IMG/VR virus record: IMGVR_UViG_3300025723_000095
Coordinates: 1 to 37,189 of that record
DNA length: 37,189 nt
Reading direction: 5' to 3' (one strand)
Source: a virus
Taxonomy: Duplodnaviria > Caudoviricetes
This document shows, in pieces, positions 2,386 through 31,651 of the stretch (position 1 is the stretch's first letter; every line of letters starts with the position of its first letter). The notes beneath the pieces were generated by a model. It was not told the DNA's origin. It ran no database searches and was given only the letters and a program-made list of their open reading frames with translations. The position numbers and the translations under genes are program-made.

Positions 2386-2604
2386 TTGACACTAGACATA
2401 GACGGCATTAATCAACTTGTCAAAGATTACGAGTTAGAGTCAAAAGCCATTAAAGATGAATTATTTAGAATATGTTGGTATATGAGAGGTGGTGTTACCT
2501 TCTCAGAAAGTTTGATGTTGTGTCACGAAGACAGACAAATAATTGCTAAGATTATTGAAAAGAATTTAGAAATCACCAAAGAGAGTGGACAACCTTTCTT
2601 TTAG
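2386..2604 (+). CDS. T4 gp51-like baseplate hub assembly chaperone (probably expressed as a frameshift fusion to the upstream gene)
   Basis: 72-aa ORF (ELFRICWYMRGGVTFSESLMLCHEDRQII) in the gp51 position after gp26; only a TTG start with no clear Shine-Dalgarno. Confidence 0.6.
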   Translation: MTLDIDGINQLVKDYELESKAIKDELFRICWYMRGGVTFSESLMLCHEDRQIIAKIIEKNLEITKESGQPFF

Positions 2605-3320
2605 ATCATCTGTCCTAAGAACTTGCTGTGAAATTCCATAACAGATTTCTTTTTCTTCTTTTTGTTTTCGTGAATGCCTTGAGCGGCTGCTCTAGCTATT
2701 AGGCCTTTGTCTTGTTGCCATCCAGGTTTTGCTTTTTCTGCTTTAACAGCGGCAACCAAATCATTATCTTTCTGTGATGTAGCGGCATTGGCTTGCTGTG
2801 TTTGTTGCATTTGCTGTTGAGCTTGTTGTTGATCAGCTTGCCCTTGTGCTTGTCGAGCGGCTGATTGTTGTTTAAGTTGATCTAAATCAACAGCTTGCCC
2901 CTGCGCCGGTTGCGGAGCGGCTGGTTGATTTTGTATTTTAGAAATTACTTCTTTTTTGCTAACCGGATCCATCTTAGACACAGTTTGTACTATTTGATCT
3001 ACTTCTGAAGGATTGGTAACAGGAGGTTGTTGAGTAGTATTTTGTGTTGTTTGGGGATTTGTTGTAGTTGGTTGACCTTGTACTGGTTGTTGTACAGGTT
3101 TGGTAGATTTAAGTCCGCCTGCTCTACTAACATTCCTTTGAGCTACTTTGGCTACTCTATCTCGATTTTGTCCATAAACATCTTTAGCTCCCTGCCAGGC
3201 TCCTTGAACTCCACCTACAGCTTTTCCTAACCCTTTGGCTACTGTACCTATACCCTTACCTATCCCAGCTAGGCTTAATTCATCTAATTGTTGTTCAGAG
3301 ATAAGTTCAGAGATATGCAT
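2601..3320 (-). CDS. Q/P/A-rich hypothetical late protein, candidate internal head protein
   Basis: 239-aa ORF with TATAAATA upstream; N-terminus MHISELISEQQLDE; low-complexity Gln-rich middle; basic KKKKKK near the C-terminus. Confidence 0.6.
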   Translation of the reverse strand: MHISELISEQQLDELSLAGIGKGIGTVAKGLGKAVGGVQGAWQGAKDVYGQNRDRVAKVAQRNVSRAGGLKSTKPVQQPVQGQPTTTNPQTTQNTTQQPPVTNPSEVDQIVQTVSKMDPVSKKEVISKIQNQPAAPQPAQGQAVDLDQLKQQSAARQAQGQADQQQAQQQMQQTQQANAATSQKDNDLVAAVKAEKAKPGWQQDKGLIARAAAQGIHENKKKKKKSVMEFHSKFLGQMI

Positions 3321-3349
3321 AAAGGTAAAGTCCTAAGTAATAGTAAGTT

Positions 3350-3357
3350 TATTTATA
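3350..3357 (-). promoter_or_regulatory. T4-type late promoter TATAAATA for the 2601-3320 gene
   Basis: Exact consensus on the minus strand, 30 nt upstream of ATG 3320, directly after the last hairpin of the structured region. Confidence 0.75.
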
Positions 3358-3797
3358 ATGAGCTGACGCTCATTTGCTCTTTCGTTATCACTCAGAGCAA
3401 CTGTTATCTTCGTAGAAGATTCTAGTATCATCCAGATTCTTTGGTCACACTTTGCCCGCACAGGGCAAAAAATGACATCATCCGAGTTCGAACAGTCACT
3501 TAGTGTTAGAGCGTTACAGTGGCGGTTGACCGGTACCACGAGCTCCGTCTTTATATCAACGGCAGTTTACATATATACACTAACATATGTGTAAACCTGG
3601 GGTTTCTCTCCCCTCCTTTTTGCCTTTTTTCTATTCTTCAAACAACTAAACCACGGCGAATTTGTGATCTTGGTCCTGTAAAGGATACTAGTTGAGTACT
3701 CTTAGCGGCGAGAGATTTCCATCCCTGTGATCCGAGATCCAGGTCTAGGGCATCCGAAATTGGCTGATGCTTGCTTATGTACCGCTGATGAGCCTAG
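3358..3797 (-). ncRNA. Putative large structured non-coding RNA (~440 nt) of unrecognised family
   Basis: Only long intergenic gap in the window. About 44% GC by hand count over 3361-3780, against visibly AT-richer flanks. More than 10 stems (e.g. 3358-3373, 3374-3400, 3406-3420, 3444-3476, 3509-3545, 3565-3596, 3599-3613, 3643-3694, 3699-3714) and two loop-mediated long-range pairings. Strand inferred from co-orientation with flanking genes and minus-strand GGAA/GAAA loop sequences. Confidence 0.6.
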
Positions 3798-4219
3798 GGT
3801 TTTTTAATTATGTGTGAGCCATGGACACGAACTTGTATATTATTGTTATAATACTCAGTAGATTCTAATACTTTATGTTCAAATTGTAATTTTGCTTCGG
3901 TATAAGAACATTCTGATTTGCTTTTACAGTAATATAATATTTCTCGTTTAAAATTTTCTATGCCTAATTTTTCTATGTCTGCGGTGAGTTCGACACTGGA
4001 ACCCCAATATAGCCGCCAATCTGATTCTATTTTACTTCTAATCTTTTTCTTTTTCTTTGTGCCATTCTTTAATTTTACTGTCTTGTATGCGGTTTTACTA
4101 AATTTTGCCAGTTTCTTGCCTATGTATTTTCTATTGTTGGTTAAATTGGTGATGAGATATACAAAGCCCACCGTGTCTTCAGGAAGTTCCTCCACTATTT
4201 GATTTTGATATGTCCACAT
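3794..4219 (-). CDS. GIY-YIG family endonuclease (Seg-like catalytic domain only)
   Basis: GFVYLITN...KYIGKK motif, FKREIL, likely catalytic Glu in YTEAK, and YYN Asn. 141 aa with a Lys-rich insertion. Confidence 0.85.
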   Translation of the reverse strand: MWTYQNQIVEELPEDTVGFVYLITNLTNNRKYIGKKLAKFSKTAYKTVKLKNGTKKKKKIRSKIESDWRLYWGSSVELTADIEKLGIENFKREILYYCKSKSECSYTEAKLQFEHKVLESTEYYNNNIQVRVHGSHIIKKP

Positions 4220-19546: not shown

Positions 19547-22500
19547 ATGGCAACTTCTAAAATTAATTCAGTAAATTTATTACCTATAACTTTACAAACT
19601 GATAAAAATACTAAATTTTTAGCCAGTACACTTGATCAACTTATACAACCGACTCAATTAAAACGCCTCGACGGGTATATAGGATCAACCCAAACTGCGA
19701 CATATAATTCTACAAATGATGTCTATCTACCTGGAAATGTTTATGATTTAACTCCGGCATTGGTAACCAATGATAGTGTTGGTAATATCCAATCTGTGCA
19801 AAGTTATAATGATTTAATAAATGAAATATCTGTTAAAGGTGGATTAACTAATAATCTTGACAGATTATTTAGATCAAAATCATACGCTTATAACGCACAT
19901 ATTGATTGGGATAAACTAGTAAATTATCAAGATTATTTTTGGTTAACAACTGGCCCTCAAGTAATTGAAGTTACTTCGGACACACTAGATATTGAATCAA
20001 CCATCATAGGACAATCTAATGCAACAGTCAATGTAGGAGATATGCAAGTTGCGTTAAGCAATGGAATGCTGATTACATTTGGCGGAATTAACATCGACAA
20101 AAAATACCATGAAAAGGAATTTTTTGTAGAAGGAGTTGGATCATCTATTGTACTAGTTCCATTCCAAAAATTAATTACTACTGAACAAATTGCTACTCCG
20201 CAAACTGAAGGATTTGATACAAAGCCTTTTGATGATTATTCTTTTGATGATAATCGACCTGTACCTATTAACGCAGAATACATTACCATCAATAGATCTA
20301 GTCTAGACTTAAATCCGTGGAGTCGTTATAATCGATGGATACATCGAGATATTATTGAAACAAGTGCAATTGCTAACGGTAAAATACCAGTCTATCCTGC
20401 AAATCTCAGAGCACAGCGACCTATTGTAGAATTTGAAGCTGGATTACAATTATTTAATTTTGGATCTAATGCAATACACCCCATCGACATTATTGATACA
20501 ACAACAACCAACGCATTTTTAACAATAAATGGTGCTGCCTCTGCTATAAATTCTATATCAACTGATGTAGTAGTAGATGGAGTGATATTATCTCCGGGGC
20601 TTCGAATTGTATTCAATGCTGATGAGAATCCTGATGTTAGAGGAAAGATATACGAAATAGATTTTGTTAAAGTTAATGGAGCTATAACATTAACATTGGT
20701 TCCTGCAGTTGATCATAATCCTGCTGTAGATTCTTCTGTATTAGTAATTAATGGGAGCTCAAATGGCGGAACAAGTTGGTGGTATGATGGCAATCAATGG
20801 CAGTATGCACAACAACGAACTGTATTAAATCAAGCACCTTTGTTTAATTTGTATGATGAATCTGGAAATAGTTATGCAGATAAAAATTATTATCTAAGTA
20901 ATTTTAAAGGTAATCAAATATTTGGATATCAAGTTGGTACTGGAACAAATGATCCTTATTTAGGATTTCCTTTAGCATATAGAAATATCAATGCTGTAGG
21001 TAGTTTTTTATTCTCTAATTATTTTTCAAGTGATACAATTGTTATTTCTTATTCAAATCTTACAACATCACAAATTTCTACCAACATAACGTATTGTAAA
21101 CGTAATACGGATTCTGGAATAATTTACGAAAATTCTTGGAAGTTAGGAGTTGATTATCCTATTCCTTTATTAACAACCCCATCATCGACCTCATATTATC
21201 AAGAACCACTTAGTTTAACCAACAACCCATTAAATTCAACAATTAATCAATTCACTATTAGCGAATTATATGAGCATGTTCAATCAATGACTATGCAAGT
21301 TCCGGGATATGTGACAACATCAAGCGGTCTATCAAGTAATTTAAGAGACTTAGGTGATTACACGACATACGGTATTAAATTAATTTCTAATTCTAATCCT
21401 ATTTCTTTTGCTCAAATGTTTATAGGAAAAAAAGAACATAGTATAATTGATGCTATTTCTAAAGTTGGTGATCAATACAATCAATTTAAATTAACATTTT
21501 TAAACAGTATTGTTAAAATTTCTAATCAGTTAGATCCTGTATCTGCGGTTGATGAAGTATTGACTACCTTAAATCAAAACAACGGTAGTTATAGTCCTTA
21601 CTATCTATCAGACATGTCAGCATACGGTAATCCAGAAATTATAAGGACATTTACAGTTACAGATCCGAGAAATGTTTTATATCCCCTAACTACTGAATTT
21701 GATCTTGATACGTTGGGTTTACGATCTGTGTTAACTTACCTTAATGGTAATCATTTAATCTATGGTATTGATTATAATTTTAATAAAGAATTGTCATGTA
21801 TTAATATATTAATACCATTATATAAAGGTGACACACTGGTTGTTAAAGATTTTACAAACACCGAAGGTGCCTACATTCCTCCAACTCCTACTAAGTTAGG
21901 AATGTATCCTGCGTTTATTCCTAAAATATATCAAGACAACACATACCTTACCCCTGTAAAAGTTATACAAGGACATGATGGTAGTATTATTCCTGCATAC
22001 AATGATTACAGAGATGCTATTATTCTTGAATTAGAAAAAAGAATTTATAATAATATCAAAGTACAATATCGTCCAGAGTTATTAGACATTAATAGTGTTA
22101 TACCTGGTGCTTTTAGAAATACTGAGTATTCGACACCTGAAATTACTAAAATACTATCACAAGATTTTATAAAATGGACAGGCACTTATAGCATTGATTA
22201 TAGTAGTCGTGCAGAATTTGATATCAATGATGCTTTTACTTGGAATTTTAATGGTAGTTATACACCTTTTAATAATATAGCATTATTTGGATCATGGCGC
22301 AGTGTTTACAAATATTTCTACGATACAGATCGACCGCATACTAATCCCTGGGAAATGTTAGGGTTCTCCGAACAGCCCAGTTGGTGGACATCGACCTATG
22401 GAACAGATTTTTCATCTAACAATACACAGATGTGGACAGACTTGGAGAATGGTTATATAGCAGGTACAGGAGAAACTAATCCTTTATATGCTCGACTAGG

Positions 22501-25500
22501 TCTAAGTGAAATTATTCCTACTTATAATAATGGTGCATTAAAAGATCCTGCTAAAATTTTTGGTCCTACTATAAGCGGAACTTTAATTCAACAAACTTGG
22601 GTTCCAGGAGATCAAGGACCTGCTGAAACCGCATGGCGTAGAAGTAGTCTATGGCCTTATACTGTACAAAAAATATTGGCATTGACCATTCCTGCAACTT
22701 ATGCTTCACTAATGTATGATACAAGTCGTATGCAAAAAAACATTGCTGGACAATGGACATACGGTGCCGACGAAACATTCTTACAATTAAATAATCTCTA
22801 TATATCTGGTGAAAATAATAATTTAACTAGCGGTTATAGTGTGTTAGTATCCGAAGTAGGACAGCAACGTACAACTAATTATATTGCTGAACTTCGCCAA
22901 GATTTAAATTATGCCAATTATAATTTATTTTATAAAGTTGGTGGATTTGTTGATCAAAATACACTGCAAGTTATTATAGATGCATATGATCCCACAAGTA
23001 CAGATCCTGGTTCTATATTACCTTCACAAAATTATAAATTAATTTTAGATATAAGTAATCCTATTAGATCTATTAGTATTTCTGGTTTTATAGTACAACG
23101 AACATCTACGGGATATACAATTAAGGGATATGATAGACAAAATCCTTATTTTACATATTATCCTAGTATAAGAAATCTTAATACACCTGCAATTACTATA
23201 GGAGGTAAAACTGCTCCTTATGTTACATGGGCACCTAGCGGAACATTAGGAGATACTGGATTAAGTAATATAGATATAACTACAGCAAAATCAGCAGTGG
23301 CCGGTAATTTTTATCAGAAAGGGCAGATAGTTGCATATGGTAATAATTATTATAGAGTTATTGTTGCACATCAAGCAGAAGCTACATTCAATCCGGCCTA
23401 TTATCAAATACTACAGTCTTTGCCTAGCACAGGTGGTGCTACGGTGCAGATTGCTAGCGGGTTTGCTACTACTGCGTTGCAAGTTCCTTATGGAACAACT
23501 TATTCAAGTATTCAAGAAGTCTATGATTTAATTATAGGATATGGACGATGGATAGTTAATCAAGGATTTATGTTCGATGAATATAATAAAGATCTAGGAA
23601 CAGTGCTTGATTGGAATTTAACAGCCAGTGAATTTTTATATTGGACAACTCAAAATTGGGCATCTGATAGTATTTTAACATTGAGTCCTTTTGCTAATCA
23701 GATAGTTTATCAGGCCACTGATTCTGTTGTGGATAATTTATTTGATGGTTTTTATGACTATAGTATTTTAAAAGCAGATGGCAGTCCATATCCTCAAAAG
23801 AGTTTAAGTATTTCTCGAAACAACGGGGTGTGTACCATTGCTACATTGCCCGACACTGATGGGATTTATTTTGCTAGATTAAATTGCATACAAAAACAAC
23901 ACGGTATGGTTTTTGATAATGTTGATGATTTTGGTGATGTCATTTATGATATTCAAACCGGCACACGACAAATGCGAATGAAATTAGTTGGCTTTAAAAC
24001 CGATGGGTGGAACGGAGATTTCTTTAGTCCTGGATTTGTATATGATAATGTAACTGTGAGTAATTGGGAATCTAATACAAAATATTTGGCAGGTACCGTA
24101 GTATATTGCAACGGTAATTATTATTCAGCAATTAAGAATATTAATCCTAGCGAATATTTTAATTTTACCGATTGGAGCTCATTACCTAAAAAACCTACTG
24201 CTGGTTTATTACCTAATCTTGATTATAAGATTACTCAGTTCTCTGATTTTTATAGTTTAGATATTGATAACTTTGATGCAGGCCAACAAAAAATGGCCCA
24301 ACATCTTACAGGATATACACCACGTGTTTATCTGAATAATATTTTTACAGATCCTATTTCACAATATAAATTCTATCAAGGATTTATTAAACAGAAAGGT
24401 ACTAAAAATTCTATTGATTCATTAAAGAAAGCAACTATACATAATTTACAAGGTCAAGTTAGTTATAATGAAGAATGGGCATTTAGAATTGGTGAATACG
24501 GATCTTATACAACGTATCAGGAATTAGAAGTTCCATTGATTGAAGGAACGTTTTTAGAAAATCCTCAAATTATTAATTTTGTTGATCAAGTACCTAATAC
24601 AGCTGGTAATAGTTTAATACATTATACTATTTCCGATAACCTTACAATTAAACCTAAAAATTATTCTCCTAGTACAACTTTTGCATCAACATCTGATCAA
24701 AGTTCAATGATATTAACACATTCTGGGTATGTTCGATTAGATGATGTTACTGCCACAGCCTATAATGAAAATAGTTTATTAGATATTGCTAACAATGGAC
24801 AATTAAAAGAAGGTGACACAATATGGTTAGGCTTTACTCAAAATGGTAATTGGGACATTTACAGATACACATATAACCCTGCAGGTATTATAGGAGTATA
24901 CGTAAGTTTTCCTGTTAGTCAAATTACATTTACCACTTCTGTAAATCATAATCTATCTGTAGGACAACTCATTAGCGTTTCTAATTTTAATAGTCAGGTA
25001 GATGGAATTTATACTGTACAATCTATACCAAAACTCAATCAATTTACAGTAGCAAGTACATTAGCTTCTATTACTAATTCAGAATTATTGTCTCCGGGTA
25101 AATTGTTTGAATTTAAAACTGCAAGGATATCTAATTTTGATAATTTACCTGCCGATAAAGAATTATACAAATTGCCTTACGGTACAAAATTTTGGATTGA
25201 TAATACTTTTGAAAATGATCAAAACTGGTCAGTCTATCAAAAAATTAATAATTACAACTCAACAGTAACATATGGACAATTTGTAGATGGTCTAGGAACT
25301 AGTATCAGCAAACGAAGCGGTAGCAATATTGTAGTAATAGGTGCACCAACCTATAATTATAATAATAAACAAGGTGCCGTGTTCCTTTATCAACAACAAG
25401 GAAATACATTAAAAAATATTTTAAGATATTTTATAGGATCTTCATATAGTTCTACAAACTTTGGTCAAACTGTAGTCTATGATGATATGCCTGTAAATTC

Positions 25501-28500
25501 TACGTCACCCTATGGATTTATATATGCATCAGCTCCAGATGCTAGTAGCGGAGCCGGAGTTGTTAAGGTTAGTACTGTTAATACAAATTCTCAAGAAGAA
25601 GGTTCTAATTTTTACATTACAAATCCAGATCCAACAAATGGATTTTTTGGTACATCTATATGGGTTCAGCGAAAGGCTGAAAATAAACTAGTTTTTATAG
25701 GTGCTCCGGGATCAAATACAGTTACTGGAAAAACTTGGATCTATAAAGTAAATTCAACATTGATATCTAATGCTGTGGCGGTGATTGATCACAATATAAG
25801 TTACACAATAGGCAGTCAATGGGGATATTCTATTAGTGGCGCAGATGATGTATCTTATATTGCTATTAGTGCTCCGGGTTATACAGATAATACTGGTATT
25901 GTTTCGGTATTTAAAAATGATATAAATTATGTACAAACTATAAGTTCTCCTTTTGGTGTTGGAGATAGATTTGGTCAGGTAGTTTCTATGTCACCGATGG
26001 GAGATTATCTGTTTATATCTGCACCGAACGTAGTGAATAGTGATAATTCTATAGGTGCGGTTGCAATATATAATTTTGTTGATGGTTTATTTGTATTAGA
26101 ATCAATTTTAGAAAATCCTGTAGCAGGTTCTTTAATGAAGTTTGGTTCGGCTATTGATATTAATACTACTTCAAATACTTTGGTAATTTCTGCATTAGGA
26201 ATTAATGCTACATTTCCAACTACTGTTGATAGCGGCAATACTACCTTTGACAATGGAATTACTGGATTTGTAGGAACAGAAACAAATTCTGGTGCAGTAT
26301 ATATGTACCATAGAAATTATCAAAGATTTATTTTGTCGCAAGAATTAACGGCATCTACAATTGCAATAACATCTGGAACAGATTTTGGAAGTAGTATAGC
26401 AATTGATGATGGAGTTGTATTTGTAGGTGCTCCAGCCGTTGATAACGATGCTGTAACTGGCGGAATATATCAATTTAATCAAATAGACTTAACAACTAAT
26501 AGTTTAAGTAAAATTAGAAATTTTGAAAATTTAGTTATACCTAATACTGTAGAAAAAGTATCATTGATTGATACTTACAACGAAGATATTTTACAATATC
26601 TTGATGTCATTGATCCGTTGAAGGGGAAAATAGCAGGTATTGCTGAACAAGAATTAACTTATAAATTAATCAGCGATCCTGCAATATACTCTCTTGGACT
26701 TGCTGGAGTTAATGTAGATACAAATACTAACTGGTTAGATGACCATGTGGGAGAATTGTGGTGGGATCTTAGCACTGCAAAATATGTATGGTACGAACAA
26801 AGCGATCTCGAATATCGTAAAAATAATTGGGGTAAATTATTTCCGGGTGCTACTATTGATGTCTACGAGTGGGTTGGTTCTACTCTGCTACCTAGTGAAT
26901 GGAGTTCCCAAGCAGATACTACTCAGGGATTAACATTAGGTATCAGCGGACAACCTAAATTTCCAGACAACAGTATTGTCAGCGTTAAACAAGTCTATGA
27001 CAACATAACTAATTCTTATAGTAACGTTTATTATTACTGGGTTAAGAATTCAATTATTGTACCTAATGCTAAAAATCGTAGAAAGAGCAGTTACGAAGTT
27101 GCCAGTATAATTGCCGATCCTACTGCTTACGGATTAGAGTTTGCGGCATTTATTTCGCCTGATGCTGTGGCGTTGAGCAATGTTAGTTCTTTATTAGTTG
27201 GTGAAAATATCAGTCTTAATATTGGACAAGATAGAGTTGCGGCTTCAATGACTAATTCTATACCTAAACATACCGAATGGTTGATTTTACAAGAAAATAA
27301 TGAGAATAGCAGTCCAAATGCATTGTTAGAAAAGAAATTAATTGATAGTTTGTTAGGACATGATAGTGTAGGAAATCCTGTTCCTGATCCGGCGTTGAGT
27401 TTAAGAACACGATATGGAATTGGAATTAGACCTCGACAAACATTCTTTAAAGATAGAATTACCGCTATAAGAAATGTTGTTGAATTTACTAACAATGTTT
27501 TAATCAACGAACTTATTACAGGTAATTATGATTTTATTAATCTTAATGCACAAGAACAAATTCCAAATAGATATCTAAACACTTATGATAAAATTGTTGA
27601 AGATAATAATGAATTAACTTTAATAGATACAACGGTATTTCAACAAGCAAAAATTCAATGTACAGTCAATGATAATGGTCAAGTTATTTCTGCTAATATT
27701 ATAAATCCTGGATTTGGATACGGCACGCTGAATTCTGTTGAAGGTGGGTATCAAGGCCCGACATTTATATATCCAGAATTTGGTAGCGGGATTAATTTAT
27801 CTACAGTTGTCGATAATACCGGTGCTGTTATTGATGTAATAATAGAAAATGGTGGTACTGGATATATCAATAATTTTATTATTACCTCTAGACCACAATC
27901 AGTGATCGTTGTTAGCGATGATATAAACAACGGAGGATGGACACAATACGTTTATGATTATTCTTCTAAAAACTGGATACGTTTTAAAACTCAAAGTTAC
28001 AATACTACTTTATATTGGAATTATGTAGATTGGTCTAGTAGTGATTACGATCAGTATAGAATATACTCTTCGATTATAGGTAGTTCCTATGAGTTAAGTG
28101 AGTTAACTATAACGCCCGGTCAGTATATTAAAATTAACAATAGTGGAAATGGAAATTATATAGTTATAGAAGCATTAGATCCTAGTATTCAAGGAACATA
28201 CGGACAGGGATTTAATTTAGTATATGCACAAAATGGTACAATACAATTATCAAACAGTATTTGGAATAGAGCAAATAGTACATATGGATTTGACTATGTT
28301 AAATCTTATGACCAAACACTGTGGGATCAAACTCCTGATCTTGAATTAAAATATATCTTAACAGCACTAAAAGAAAACATATTCATTAATTCATTAAAAA
28401 TTAACTGGAATTTATTATTTTTTACCGCTGTTAGGTATGCGTTGTCGGAACAAAAATTATTAGACTGGGCTTTTAAAACATCTTTTATAAATGTTGTTAA

Positions 28501-31500
28501 TCAGGTAGGACAATTAGGGCAACCGCCTATATATAAATTGCAAGACAGTAGTTTTTATCAACAATACATCGAAGAAGTCAAACCGTATCATACACAGATA
28601 AGAAATTTTGTTACTCAGTATTCTGATATAGAATCAACAAATACATATCTTGATGATTCTAATAGAAAAATTGATACTACAATTAAATTTGATAGAATTT
28701 CTAAAGGTAACGAAATAGGTAGTTTAACAGCAACTGATACTTTTATCTGTGATGGAGTGACTAATAAATTTACATTAAATTGGTTGGCGCAGCCTAATAA
28801 AAGTTTAATTACAATTAAACTTACTAAAGCTGGATTACCTAATGGTACAGTATCTGTTGAAGATTATACAATTATATCAGATTTACAAAATAGTGTATTA
28901 GTATTCTTAAATTATATTCCAACAGCTGATGAAACAATAACAATCACATATCAAAAAAATAATAATTTACTCAATGCCGCTGAACGCATATTGAATTTTT
29001 ATGAACCTACACCAGGAATGCCGGGTGTAGATTTAACACAATTGATGACCGGTATTGAGTACCCTGGAATCACAGTCGGCGGTCAATATGAAGGTCCTGG
29101 ATTTAATAATACATTTGGAGGTTGGTACCCTGATAGTTTTATCGATGGCGGTACATGGACTAACGGATTATCAACTACTGCTTTGGGAATTAATCCATCG
29201 GATATTATTATAGATGGCGAATACGGATTTGTAACACCGAATACCAGTTATGCTCCAGAAGAAGTTGTTCCAGGATTCGTTATGGATAGTTTAGGCATCA
29301 ATGTGTATACTAAAAACAAATATGGAGCTCCGTTAGTACTTAATCACAATGTCAGTGTATTAGCATCAACTTCCACCCAATCTTTTGTATTATCTACATT
29401 GCCTACTACAATTGATAATATTTTAGTATCTTATAATAATGTAGAATTAACTTATATTGATAATACTAATTTTACTTCATCTGTTCAATATAATATAGAT
29501 TGGGCTAATTCTACATTGATAATCCCCCCTCAAGTTGATAATGGATATCTGGGATATACTATAGTAAGTGTTGGCGGCGGAAATCCTGATGGAACAACTG
29601 TAGGAGTTATTGATAAAGCTGTAAAAACATTTTCTGGTAATACTATTCCTGTAGTAGAAAGTTTGGCTTTTTATAATGATATAACAGATGTTTTTGTTAC
29701 AATCAATGGACGACCTACCAGTGCATATACACTAGGACCAGTTAGTCTCAGTGATCAAAGAGCATCAGTAACAATTACTAGTTTTAACAATGCAGGAACT
29801 AATACAATTCAGGTATGGTTCTTTACAAATTCTCAAAGTTATTTTAATGTTATACATAATCAACAGTTAATGTTAAATGGGCATGACATTGCTGATCCGT
29901 TTATATTAATATGGCCTCCTGGAACTATCGAACCATTAAGTCAGCAAGCAATTGTTAAAATTACAGATTCAAACGGCACCAGACGATTGTTACCACCGGA
30001 CACGACTTATTATTCTGTTTCAGATCCATCCATTACAACATTTAATTTTACAATTAGTGGAATCAATAGCCTAATACCTAATTTATCATCATTTGAATTT
30101 GATAGAACCACGGTATATGTGTATGTCAATGGAGTAAAATTATCAAATTTTGATGACACTGAGTATACTGTTAACAGCATAGATAGAACAATTACTATAG
30201 CATTATCATTAACAACTGGTGATGCTATTGCAATCGAAGCTTTTGTTCCTAATGTTATAGGAAATAGCGATCCTTTAAGTAGTGATCCTTATACCTATCA
30301 ATATAGAATAGTTGGTGATAAATTATATCTATCTCCTGAAGCAGGTAGCTCATTTGAACCTGATGCATATCTTGATGTTATTACCTACGCAGATTCAAAC
30401 GGAATGTTAATTGAGACTCAGAAATTTACTGGACACGCTAATCGAAGATTTACAATAAATCGACCTATTTTAAATGATAATTATGTTTTTATAACAGTAT
30501 TCAAATATGATGGCACTAATATAATAAGTTATCCTTTAGTCAATGGTATTGACTTTATTATATTAGATGATGATGTAACAATACAATTAAGTGATAAATG
30601 GAAATTGACCAACAATGATATTGTTGAAATTATAAGTTTTGCTAGTCAGAATTTTAGTAGTGAAGTTCTAGGGTATCGTATATTCAACGACATATTAGGA
30701 AATACATCTTTTACAAGATTAGGTAATAAGTATTCAACAACATTGGCGCAACCTCTATTACTTGGTGATAATGAAATTTATGTCACAGATAGTTCTGTAT
30801 TAACTCCTCCTCAAATTGATGAAAATATCCCCGGTGTTGTTCTTATCAACACAGAACGTATTGAATTTTTTCAAATTTATGGAAATGTATTAAGTCAATT
30901 ACGTCGAGGTACACTGGGTACAAGTCCTAAATTATTTGTAGATCAAGGTACTGGTGTAATTGATCAAGGAGTGGATCAAATAATTCCATTCACTGAACAA
31001 ATTCGAATACAAAATACATTTACTAATACGTTAACTAATATACATAATATAGTTAAATCTGATACTTTGAGAACTTATCCTAATACATCAACTTTTGTGC
31101 GATGTGATGGAATAACACTATCTACAACTACTTCGTTGATTGATCAAATTGATGTTTATTATGGCGGAAGATTATTAAGAAAAACAGACAGCTATCGTCA
31201 AGAAACAACAGCAACTTATAATACTGTTAGCATACCTAATACACTAGGCACTACATCAACGGTCGAATTATTACCTATTAGTGCCAACATAGGTGATTCA
31301 TATATTATAAATTCTAATAATCAAATATGGACATATACAGGATATAGAACGCAGGCTCCGTCGACAACAGGATGGGTATATTCTGGATTAAAATATTTGC
31401 CACAAGAATATTCAGTTACATTAACTAACTCAACACAGGTATTAGTATTGAATACTGCTACATTGAGAATTCATCCAAATTTACAAGTTTCTATTGTACA

Positions 31501-31651
31501 GAAAGATTACCCGGTATCTGCATCATGGAATACAATCGATCCTATAAATTCTAAAAAGACGTTAAGTTTATTAGAAAGTACAACAACAGTAGCTCGATTC
31601 TTACAAGAAGCGCCTGCTGTACTCCCTGATAATTACTTTTATCGCAGGTAG
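19547..31651 (+). CDS. Giant (4034 aa) virion structural protein in the gp7 baseplate-wedge position
   Basis: Follows gp6; internal FY.GFIKQKGT motif reminiscent of gp7-like wedge proteins; FG-GAP-like repeats, carbohydrate-binding-like modules and beta-rich repeats. Confidence 0.7.
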   Translation: MATSKINSVNLLPITLQTDKNTKFLASTLDQLIQPTQLKRLDGYIGSTQTATYNSTNDVYLPGNVYDLTPALVTNDSVGNIQSVQSYNDLINEISVKGGLTNNLDRLFRSKSYAYNAHIDWDKLVNYQDYFWLTTGPQVIEVTSDTLDIESTIIGQSNATVNVGDMQVALSNGMLITFGGINIDKKYHEKEFFVEGVGSSIVLVPFQKLITTEQIATPQTEGFDTKPFDDYSFDDNRPVPINAEYITINRSSLDLNPWSRYNRWIHRDIIETSAIANGKIPVYPANLRAQRPIVEFEAGLQLFNFGSNAIHPIDIIDTTTTNAFLTINGAASAINSISTDVVVDGVILSPGLRIVFNADENPDVRGKIYEIDFVKVNGAITLTLVPAVDHNPAVDSSVLVINGSSNGGTSWWYDGNQWQYAQQRTVLNQAPLFNLYDESGNSYADKNYYLSNFKGNQIFGYQVGTGTNDPYLGFPLAYRNINAVGSFLFSNYFSSDTIVISYSNLTTSQISTNITYCKRNTDSGIIYENSWKLGVDYPIPLLTTPSSTSYYQEPLSLTNNPLNSTINQFTISELYEHVQSMTMQVPGYVTTSSGLSSNLRDLGDYTTYGIKLISNSNPISFAQMFIGKKEHSIIDAISKVGDQYNQFKLTFLNSIVKISNQLDPVSAVDEVLTTLNQNNGSYSPYYLSDMSAYGNPEIIRTFTVTDPRNVLYPLTTEFDLDTLGLRSVLTYLNGNHLIYGIDYNFNKELSCINILIPLYKGDTLVVKDFTNTEGAYIPPTPTKLGMYPAFIPKIYQDNTYLTPVKVIQGHDGSIIPAYNDYRDAIILELEKRIYNNIKVQYRPELLDINSVIPGAFRNTEYSTPEITKILSQDFIKWTGTYSIDYSSRAEFDINDAFTWNFNGSYTPFNNIALFGSWRSVYKYFYDTDRPHTNPWEMLGFSEQPSWWTSTYGTDFSSNNTQMWTDLENGYIAGTGETNPLYARLGLSEIIPTYNNGALKDPAKIFGPTISGTLIQQTWVPGDQGPAETAWRRSSLWPYTVQKILALTIPATYASLMYDTSRMQKNIAGQWTYGADETFLQLNNLYISGENNNLTSGYSVLVSEVGQQRTTNYIAELRQDLNYANYNLFYKVGGFVDQNTLQVIIDAYDPTSTDPGSILPSQNYKLILDISNPIRSISISGFIVQRTSTGYTIKGYDRQNPYFTYYPSIRNLNTPAITIGGKTAPYVTWAPSGTLGDTGLSNIDITTAKSAVAGNFYQKGQIVAYGNNYYRVIVAHQAEATFNPAYYQILQSLPSTGGATVQIASGFATTALQVPYGTTYSSIQEVYDLIIGYGRWIVNQGFMFDEYNKDLGTVLDWNLTASEFLYWTTQNWASDSILTLSPFANQIVYQATDSVVDNLFDGFYDYSILKADGSPYPQKSLSISRNNGVCTIATLPDTDGIYFARLNCIQKQHGMVFDNVDDFGDVIYDIQTGTRQMRMKLVGFKTDGWNGDFFSPGFVYDNVTVSNWESNTKYLAGTVVYCNGNYYSAIKNINPSEYFNFTDWSSLPKKPTAGLLPNLDYKITQFSDFYSLDIDNFDAGQQKMAQHLTGYTPRVYLNNIFTDPISQYKFYQGFIKQKGTKNSIDSLKKATIHNLQGQVSYNEEWAFRIGEYGSYTTYQELEVPLIEGTFLENPQIINFVDQVPNTAGNSLIHYTISDNLTIKPKNYSPSTTFASTSDQSSMILTHSGYVRLDDVTATAYNENSLLDIANNGQLKEGDTIWLGFTQNGNWDIYRYTYNPAGIIGVYVSFPVSQITFTTSVNHNLSVGQLISVSNFNSQVDGIYTVQSIPKLNQFTVASTLASITNSELLSPGKLFEFKTARISNFDNLPADKELYKLPYGTKFWIDNTFENDQNWSVYQKINNYNSTVTYGQFVDGLGTSISKRSGSNIVVIGAPTYNYNNKQGAVFLYQQQGNTLKNILRYFIGSSYSSTNFGQTVVYDDMPVNSTSPYGFIYASAPDASSGAGVVKVSTVNTNSQEEGSNFYITNPDPTNGFFGTSIWVQRKAENKLVFIGAPGSNTVTGKTWIYKVNSTLISNAVAVIDHNISYTIGSQWGYSISGADDVSYIAISAPGYTDNTGIVSVFKNDINYVQTISSPFGVGDRFGQVVSMSPMGDYLFISAPNVVNSDNSIGAVAIYNFVDGLFVLESILENPVAGSLMKFGSAIDINTTSNTLVISALGINATFPTTVDSGNTTFDNGITGFVGTETNSGAVYMYHRNYQRFILSQELTASTIAITSGTDFGSSIAIDDGVVFVGAPAVDNDAVTGGIYQFNQIDLTTNSLSKIRNFENLVIPNTVEKVSLIDTYNEDILQYLDVIDPLKGKIAGIAEQELTYKLISDPAIYSLGLAGVNVDTNTNWLDDHVGELWWDLSTAKYVWYEQSDLEYRKNNWGKLFPGATIDVYEWVGSTLLPSEWSSQADTTQGLTLGISGQPKFPDNSIVSVKQVYDNITNSYSNVYYYWVKNSIIVPNAKNRRKSSYEVASIIADPTAYGLEFAAFISPDAVALSNVSSLLVGENISLNIGQDRVAASMTNSIPKHTEWLILQENNENSSPNALLEKKLIDSLLGHDSVGNPVPDPALSLRTRYGIGIRPRQTFFKDRITAIRNVVEFTNNVLINELITGNYDFINLNAQEQIPNRYLNTYDKIVEDNNELTLIDTTVFQQAKIQCTVNDNGQVISANIINPGFGYGTLNSVEGGYQGPTFIYPEFGSGINLSTVVDNTGAVIDVIIENGGTGYINNFIITSRPQSVIVVSDDINNGGWTQYVYDYSSKNWIRFKTQSYNTTLYWNYVDWSSSDYDQYRIYSSIIGSSYELSELTITPGQYIKINNSGNGNYIVIEALDPSIQGTYGQGFNLVYAQNGTIQLSNSIWNRANSTYGFDYVKSYDQTLWDQTPDLELKYILTALKENIFINSLKINWNLLFFTAVRYALSEQKLLDWAFKTSFINVVNQVGQLGQPPIYKLQDSSFYQQYIEEVKPYHTQIRNFVTQYSDIESTNTYLDDSNRKIDTTIKFDRISKGNEIGSLTATDTFICDGVTNKFTLNWLAQPNKSLITIKLTKAGLPNGTVSVEDYTIISDLQNSVLVFLNYIPTADETITITYQKNNNLLNAAERILNFYEPTPGMPGVDLTQLMTGIEYPGITVGGQYEGPGFNNTFGGWYPDSFIDGGTWTNGLSTTALGINPSDIIIDGEYGFVTPNTSYAPEEVVPGFVMDSLGINVYTKNKYGAPLVLNHNVSVLASTSTQSFVLSTLPTTIDNILVSYNNVELTYIDNTNFTSSVQYNIDWANSTLIIPPQVDNGYLGYTIVSVGGGNPDGTTVGVIDKAVKTFSGNTIPVVESLAFYNDITDVFVTINGRPTSAYTLGPVSLSDQRASVTITSFNNAGTNTIQVWFFTNSQSYFNVIHNQQLMLNGHDIADPFILIWPPGTIEPLSQQAIVKITDSNGTRRLLPPDTTYYSVSDPSITTFNFTISGINSLIPNLSSFEFDRTTVYVYVNGVKLSNFDDTEYTVNSIDRTITIALSLTTGDAIAIEAFVPNVIGNSDPLSSDPYTYQYRIVGDKLYLSPEAGSSFEPDAYLDVITYADSNGMLIETQKFTGHANRRFTINRPILNDNYVFITVFKYDGTNIISYPLVNGIDFIILDDDVTIQLSDKWKLTNNDIVEIISFASQNFSSEVLGYRIFNDILGNTSFTRLGNKYSTTLAQPLLLGDNEIYVTDSSVLTPPQIDENIPGVVLINTERIEFFQIYGNVLSQLRRGTLGTSPKLFVDQGTGVIDQGVDQIIPFTEQIRIQNTFTNTLTNIHNIVKSDTLRTYPNTSTFVRCDGITLSTTTSLIDQIDVYYGGRLLRKTDSYRQETTATYNTVSIPNTLGTTSTVELLPISANIGDSYIINSNNQIWTYTGYRTQAPSTTGWVYSGLKYLPQEYSVTLTNSTQVLVLNTATLRIHPNLQVSIVQKDYPVSASWNTIDPINSKKTLSLLESTTTVARFLQEAPAVLPDNYFYRR

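Follow-up and report, generated by a model that had tools for sequence, protein, structure and literature searches.

A conserved, multiply knotted RNA with a twin-box 3′ module in T4-like jumbo phages and its possible role as a replication origin

The intergenic gap and its neighbours

The window, i.e. the whole stretch of 37,189 nucleotides analysed here, belongs to a T4-like jumbo phage, being a fragment that is 11% complete; its late sigma factor is nearest to those of PA5oct and Asteriusvirus-type phages. Its genes are arranged in the order sigma factor, SbcD, SbcC, a small gene, a GIY-YIG nuclease gene, the gap under study, a variable gene and the convergent baseplate-hub genes, and the locus is the convergence point of two transcription units. 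A first interpretation made from the letters alone (the sequence-only reading) had described a gap of 473 bp, the only long one, at about 44% GC. The length (3321-3793) and the singularity of the gap were confirmed, the second largest measuring 109 bp in the gene set used, and the GC content was corrected to 42.9%, against 35.2% for the window. The minus strand folded better than dinucleotide shuffles, as that reading requires (z −2.92, none of 100 shuffles as good); the plus strand gave a z of −2.04, with one of 100 shuffles equally good. The features of the locus are collected in Table 1. The product of the variable gene gave no family match. The baseplate-hub gene pair at 2386-2604 and 1262-2380 ends in a TTTTTTC-G region, and an open reading frame of 4034 aa was seen at 19547-31651.

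Table 1. Coordinates and evidence for the features of the locus (window numbering)
Feature	Positions	Strand	Evidence and remarks
Variable gene downstream of the gap	2601-3320	-	239 aa, start MHISE; missing from some homologous loci
TATAAATA, presumed T4-type late promoter box for the next gene	3350-3357	-	sequence
Hairpin H3, C(GTCA)G loop	3357-3374	-	four pairs at E 0; strictly Watson-Crick
Hairpin H2, GATA loop	3375-3399	-	DNA fold, loop census
Hairpin H1	3406-3420	+	loop C(GTA)G on plus (template) strand
Box 2 (GGATGAT)	3427-3433	-	follows anchor ATCT; putative DNA landing site
Inter-box hairpin	3451-3469	-	fixed distance to box 2
Box 1 (GGAUGAU)	3477-3483	-	follows anchor ACUC; putative template-pairing RNA segment; same-base covariation with box 2
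Most conserved core	3500-3563	-	five pairs at E ≤ 0.05; carries GCCG, AAGAC, GGUA, ACCGCC
Long stem, loop 3577-3583 in pseudoknot 2 with 3500-3506	3565-3596	-	covariation; knot 98% paired
A-rich linker and GGGG/CCCC hairpin (3599-3613)	3599-3639	-	86% paired, best E 0.25
Polynucleobacter-1 domain	3640-3775	-	three hairpins and three-way junction; six canonical pairs at E ≤ 0.05
Pseudoknot 1, 5′ strand	3781-3785	-	partner loop 3705-3709; conserved structure ends here on the 5′ side; two pairs at E 0.2
Stand-alone SegE-type GIY-YIG nuclease gene	3794-4219	-	141 aa; Pfam PF19835, E 3.4e-33

The nuclease gene lies directly upstream of the element in 66 of the 70 RNA-anchored viral loci with enough flank. 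In two loci (L091 and L099) a RusA-like PD-(D/E)XK resolvase takes its place, with an RNase HI gene between resolvase and RNA in L091, and in three others (L106, L048, L061) a gene is inserted between nuclease and RNA. Conversely, 18 of 80 loci collected by means of the GIY-YIG protein carried no RNA match, one of them having just 20 nt downstream. The nuclease is thus a usual but replaceable neighbour, of which the element is independent. The PHROG family of the protein encoded at 3794-4219, phrog_447, carries the label 'NAD synthetase', which is repeated in many GenBank records and against which Pfam assigns the protein to GIY-YIG.

Conservation and fold of the RNA

Among the same 80 loci a match to the gap was found right after the nuclease stop codon in 58, mostly at full length, and a DNA pattern derived from the core retrieved at least 120 loci. 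In nine of the 80, other RNA bodies (types B and C) are followed by the same 3′ module. For the alignment, 183 profile matches were narrowed to 149 near full-length sequences and reduced to 121, with a mean identity of 65% and an effective number of 99. Covariation was measured by an APC-corrected G-test (our own script, not R-scape) against 20 tree-based null alignments. Conservation covered the entire gap, and 22 column pairs were found at E ≤ 0.1, made up of 18 canonical, three same-base and one non-canonical pair. G-U pairs far outnumbered A-C pairs in most helices, as in 207 versus 0, 325 versus 34 (the long stem at 3565-3596) and 121 versus 0, and we therefore take the minus strand as the folded one. 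The expectation that the gap would be conserved and covary at homologous loci 3′ of GIY-YIG genes was borne out, and the comparative data argue for a large, tertiary-folded minus-strand RNA as originally proposed.

All stems listed in the sequence-only reading are present in the window. Covariation supported GCAUC/GAUGC, CAACUA/UAGUUG, GAGC/GCUC, GUGG/CCAC and the long stem 3565-3596, and also, well, the pseudoknot 3577-3583/3500-3506 (pairs at E 0.1 and 0.25). Weaker support was obtained for the other predicted pseudoknot, 3781-3785/3705-3709 (six pairs tested, 82% paired), for the CCUG-GAUC stem (best E 0.2) and for GGGG/CCCC. The stems CUCU/AGAG (82%), UCCU/AGGA (86%) and UUUGCCC/GGGCAAA (86%) are mostly paired in the homologues and lack significant covariation; the same is true of CGG/CCG (92%), which in addition competes with a covarying helix, 3556-3560/3525-3529. 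The hairpin GAU-GGAA-AUC, paired in only 64%, was not supported, and the CCUAG stem overlapping the nuclease stop codon was found in one of 36 homologues. The first inventory of stems had overlooked the twin boxes, the tail of hairpins reaching as far as 3350, and a third crossing helix. This helix, 3556-3560/3525-3529, belongs to the most conserved core, where 3542-3545/3509-3512 and 3535-3539/3519-3523 are the two nested helices that it crosses.

The one non-canonical pair, at window positions 3685 and 3673, was U-C in 80 and C-U in 41 of the 121 sequences (E 0). It is tied to two alternative forms of a small hairpin and possibly reflects a tertiary contact or an alignment shift. Natural deletions were seen in two loci, L139, which lacks the first 110 positions of the RNA profile, and L083, which apparently lacks a middle part of the RNA, the rest being kept in both; such deletions would reveal dispensable domains.

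The sole Rfam match in the window was RF01718 (Polynucleobacter-1) at 3640-3775 on the minus strand, with 109.9 bits against a gathering threshold of 37 (E 3.5e-23) and over the full model, positions 1-141. The model thus accounts for 141 positions out of the roughly 440 nt of the element; pseudoknot 1, knotted core, twin boxes and hairpin tail, all present in the window, have no counterpart in it. Of the suggestion that the RNA belongs to an unnamed class, the 5′ third has to be given up, since it is RF01718; for the other two thirds, which gave no match, it stands. Covariance models and ARAGORN returned no tRNA, tmRNA, RNase P or group I or II intron, as had been anticipated, and Rfam returned no GOLLD, ROOL or OLE. 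A permissive scan of the window gave only chance matches beyond RF01718; C/D-box snoRNA and microRNA matches, at E 0.4-8, were discarded as such. Polynucleobacter-1 was listed in 2010 as a probable RNA, probably cis-regulatory, with 16 representatives from Burkholderiales and fresh water, and the text and tables examined of that report give no function for it (PMC2864571). Neither the literature searched nor the accessible part of PMC7318152 describes the full element, term searches of PMC5259590 met with no origin or intergenic element, and term searches of the main texts of 10.64898/2026.09.22.753630 and 10.64898/2026.10.21.760802, whose supplements may list the family, gave no match. The element is real and in part catalogued, and mostly undescribed in the literature searched. 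Comparative sequence evidence shows a knotted RNA fold of roughly 300 nt within a conserved jumbo-phage element.

Twin boxes and hairpin tail in phages and islands

Downstream of the fold lie two copies of a heptamer that vary together. Four of the 121 sequences could not be parsed; box 1 equalled box 2 in 111 of the 117 others, compared with a mean of 25.8 and a maximum of 40 in permutations, and 112 sequences were used in later counts. Five of the six mismatches were due to mis-anchored parses, and the sixth has G in box 1 and A in box 2. The sequence of the boxes varies with the type of RNA and yet stays matched, with ACATGAA in four of four type C loci, and type A boxes keep near one consensus, R-G-A-T-R-A-T. 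The spacing between the boxes is mostly 47-57 nt, without helical phasing. The apex of the inter-box hairpin lies 20-21 nt from ATCT in 111 of the 117 sequences, and its distance from box 1 is variable.

The covariation set of 121 homologues held no canonical partner column for the boxes, and a third site complementary to the box was not found in the RNA (own box in 52 of 112 sequences, permuted boxes in 54); an RNA-RNA switch was rejected for lack of this third site. Pairing of the transcript of copy 1 with the template strand of copy 2 would be expected to leave just such a pattern, namely direct repeats that covary although neither has a partner in the RNA. Purine mismatches over 14 positions in 112 sequences ran one way only, the first copy having G and the second A in 134 cases versus 0 of the reverse. 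This excess is predicted by rG-dT wobble pairing; most of it, however, came from two positions with inherited states, and the pyrimidine mismatches in the flanks (C/T 42 versus T/C 23) run in the wrong direction for the pairing model.

Past box 2, two to three hairpins follow, with C(GNA)G, C(GNNA)G or TTTA loops. GNA and GNNA loops are typical of stable DNA hairpins. With stems of at least 4 pairs and counting either strand, C(GNA)G and C(GNNA)G hairpins occurred 1.53 times per sequence past box 2, compared with 0.01 upstream and 0.01 in shuffles. As a rule the loop motif of the first tail hairpin is found on the template strand, and those of the later hairpins on the sense strand. In H3, G-U and A-C were each found in three of 844 cells; the same hairpin also scores as a terminator-like site on the plus strand. 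The motif ATAAATA is common in homologues at the position of the presumed late promoter box, and the 60 nt from box 2 onwards are 68% A+T (115 sequences; window, 65%). Taken together, the last 140 nt, with twin boxes, DNA-type hairpins and late promoter, look like a cis-acting module rather than more of the RNA fold.

In the cultured Escherichia coli phage EcMJ a non-coding gap was found at the matching genome position, beside endonuclease VII, and this gap matches 72 phage records. An alignment of 13 sequences revealed about 480 conserved nt with twin boxes, a fixed-distance hairpin and GNA hairpins, and by eye a TATAAT box was seen upstream of most copies. No blastn match to cultured phages was obtained with the window gap, and no profile match joins the two elements; that of the cultured E. 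coli, Serratia and Cronobacter jumbo phages is architecturally similar and tied to the window's by synteny and architecture only. Four copies are present in EcMJ, five in BF, five in GAP32 and two clear ones in RaK2, leaving out for the latter a candidate near 7 kb that could not be anchored; all lie on one strand. Their spacing is more even than random (P 0.002 for BF, 0.001 for GAP32 and 0.03 for EcMJ, BF and GAP32 being related). In each of two freshwater genomes (G001 and G002) a single copy was detectable.

The box of the cultured phages, 6 nt long, is uniform within a genome and differs between genomes, being CGTCAA in EcMJ, CGTCAG in five of five copies each of BF and GAP32 and CTTCAA in both RaK2 copies, where it has to be considered that the parsing pattern fixed four positions and left only two free to vary. 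Identity of the box throughout a genome, across divergent paralogues, speaks for recognition by a protein or for pairing in trans. A triplet lying 5′ of the box, at an offset of one base, was the same beside both boxes in 23 of 23 copies that could be parsed, yet varies within single genomes from copy to copy (ACC at 93 kb in BF, 99 kb in GAP32 and 59 kb in EcMJ, ATC elsewhere); two unparsed copies read by eye gave ACC/ACC and ATT/ATC. Such a copy-specific match favours pairing in cis and is not predicted by a single protein consensus. At the matching position of PA5oct (L201:13860-15374) there is a gene-poor gap of 1.5 kb with four tiny annotated genes and, by eye, a similar hairpin tail, which may be a further RNA type. 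It gave no profile or BLAST match and was for this reason not counted as a member. The four annotated ncRNAs of PA5oct are located outside this gap, and its small genes had no rows in the searched parts of two supplements.

A genome scan revealed six bacterial contigs with a relative of the element, and RF01718 scored above cut-off in 18 of 151 genomes searched of the genus Polynucleobacter. Of 24 bacterial loci, 23 adjoin a gene for a DUF6641 protein, a domain on which the literature search found no paper, and the remaining one, with GIY-YIG gene and type A RNA, is probably a misbinned phage contig. The 23 are parts of islands of about 9 kb (7-11 kb), some of them at tRNA-Phe or tRNA-Met (L243:5511-14472, L290-L302, L241, L245); the island in L243, 8.9 kb long, is flanked by 40-bp repeats from tRNA-Phe. 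An integrase, DUF6641, a small Xer-like tyrosine recombinase and two unnamed proteins form a core found in 16 of 16 islands, in varying order and orientation, and a clamp-loader-like ATPase is encoded in 15 of them. No primase, Rep, terminase or capsid genes were recognised in the islands. A TAAATA box of the T4 late promoter type precedes the RNA in all 23. The island boxes differ from phage boxes and were matched in 15 of 21 copies (permutation mean 4.5, maximum 10), two of the 23 being cut by contig ends and left out. The island RNA gave no match among plasmids, nor did the island pattern among viral contigs. The structural models of the core proteins C2 and C3 (pLDDT 80 and 74) gave no Foldseek match at E ≤ 0.001, and C3 was found in the Atlas only in unnamed clusters; without family or fold match, these proteins might include an initiator encoded by the island. 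The islands are probable satellites of jumbo phages.

A possible RNA-primed origin and its alternatives

The reading that we favour, at a probability of about one half, is that the element is an RNA-primed, ColE1-like origin of DNA replication. Transcription of the minus strand would be provided in the phage by read-through from the gp55-gp47-gp46 operon and in the islands by the late promoter. During passage of the polymerase over box 2, box 1 of the transcript would pair with the template strand of box 2, looping out the intervening hairpin, and would nucleate a persistent RNA-DNA hybrid comparable to that of the rG/dC stretches of ColE1, with the folded 5′ body presenting box 1 or timing the event. 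A cut of the RNase H type would then yield the primer for the phage polymerase, and the GNA-loop hairpins folded by displaced and template strands would offer a loading place for helicase or primase. The islands, as satellites, would use the origin with the replisome of their helper. A gene of the T4-type RNase H family was found in five of five genomes. Several observations speak against this reading: RNase HI proper was present in only one of the five, the predicted hybrid of seven to nine pairs is short, and four of the 21 island boxes carry mismatches that are not wobble-compatible (two others are G/A). In 36 type A loci, the surroundings of the GIY-YIG stop codon showed no conserved promoter. 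In both freshwater genomes GC skew and skew at four-fold sites followed gene-orientation bias alone, with no inflection at the element; this result weighs little either way, because the phage may replicate mainly by recombination. The replication start of such 350-kb phages was not addressed in the literature found.

More tentatively, the RNA may be self-targeting, its knotted body holding box 1 as a guide, invading its own DNA without an initiator protein and perhaps making the primer end itself; several origins of this kind would be distributed at even distances along jumbo-phage genomes, and satellites of a class not yet described would have captured one under the helper's late promoter while supplying their own clamp-loader subunit.

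As an alternative, the twin boxes could be bound by a protein of the phage, be it an initiator, a helicase loader or a chromosome organiser, with the RNA as scaffold or transcriptional activator of the site. Uniform boxes among all paralogues of a genome and the closeness of type A boxes to one consensus would fit such sites, but the matched triplet is copy-specific, helical phasing is absent and the island boxes do not track C3, the same box occurring with proteins 22-24% identical and different boxes with proteins 92% identical, so that we consider this unlikely. Still less probable is a structured ncRNA acting on its own (regulatory, decoy or cage-forming, as in GOLLD/ROOL), downstream of which would lie ordinary terminators and the next gene's late promoter. 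The convergence of two transcription units, the terminator-like score of H3 and a hairpin with U-tract after box 1 in some cultured copies agree with it, yet it leaves unexplained the same-base covariation of the boxes, the GNA triloops on both strands and the retention of one and the same tail behind RNA bodies of four kinds.

Packaging sites are often copied by satellites, and the element could accordingly be a packaging or concatemer-processing signal that is mimicked by the islands and read by terminase or a neighbouring resolvase. Genes for endonuclease VII, RusA-like or GIY-YIG proteins often adjoin, and in the islands the RNA is placed after the late promoter box; we nevertheless regard this as improbable, since genomes carry multiple copies, those of EcMJ lie at least 38 kb from its terminal repeat of 21,525 bp, and several cultured loci have no annotated adjoining nuclease. 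An OMEGA-like guide or partner of the GIY-YIG protein, as the adjacency in phages might suggest, is very improbable and was rejected, for RNA and nuclease are not obligately together (the RNA-less loci, resolvase substitutions and inserted genes described above; no GIY-YIG gene at 23 of 24 bacterial loci), the genome position is fixed and a variable guide end is absent. Equally far-fetched is a derivative of a ribozyme or intron, be it a group I-like core or a reverse-transcriptase template RNA: invariant residues are dense in the multiply knotted core and P3-like and P7-like complements are present in the window, but these lie outside the covarying set, one strand pairing elsewhere, no Rfam intron or ribozyme matched, and reverse transcriptase PF00078 was found in none of five genomes (controls positive in three of 14), which disposes of a group I core and of a retron or RT-associated ncRNA.

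The favoured reading, an RNA-primed origin, can be compared with known systems. In ColE1, as described in PMC4412123 and PMC5043065, the persistent hybrid arises by pairing between an rG stretch in the RNA and a dC stretch in the template; the primer is produced by RNase H, and the helicase loads onto the displaced strand. The element would resemble RNA II in being a long folded transcript with a stretch that putatively pairs with template DNA. It differs in lacking sequence or Rfam similarity to RNA II/RNA I, in having as its pairing stretch a variable 7-mer about 50 nt from the site instead of an rG/dC run, and in its multiple pseudoknots and its phage and island context. In T4, oriF and oriG are among several transcript-primed R-loop origins per genome (PMC4412123). 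The window likewise derives from a T4-like phage with several copies per genome in cultured relatives, transcript priming being here a proposal, but the T4 origins consist of a middle promoter and an unwinding element, and the available text of PMC4412123 describes no conserved RNA fold for them, whereas in the window element the RNA fold is the most conserved part. With GOLLD, ROOL and OLE the element shares size class and dense tertiary structure, and it is set apart from them by its end, a module that apparently acts in cis as DNA. In OMEGA and bridge-RNA systems a structured RNA adjoins a nuclease gene, and a segment covaries with the DNA of its own element. Both traits recur here, but an obligate protein partner, phage mobility and a variable guide for foreign targets are missing, and fixed synteny with a single copy in G001 and G002 does not indicate mobility of the OMEGA type.

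If the origin reading is true, an Rfam orphan from 2010 would gain a function and priming of the ColE1 style would extend to an ornate RNA, and the pairing rule of the two boxes would make the question of where replication starts testable by compensatory mutation in cultured E. coli phages. It would also point to a family of jumbo-phage satellites in abundant lake bacteria and, potentially, to a plasmid origin that fires only upon infection.

Two minor observations concern the islands. In L243 a 25-nt imperfect palindrome occurs in five copies at gene boundaries (5749, 8720, 11446, 13082 and 14252), which may be sites for the small recombinase. At L241:8793-9197 and L244:3726-4250, a glutamine-rich or similar protein starts with M-x-I-x-E-I, like those of the phage variable genes (window 2601-3320), which possibly reflects a common N-terminal start for capsid targeting.
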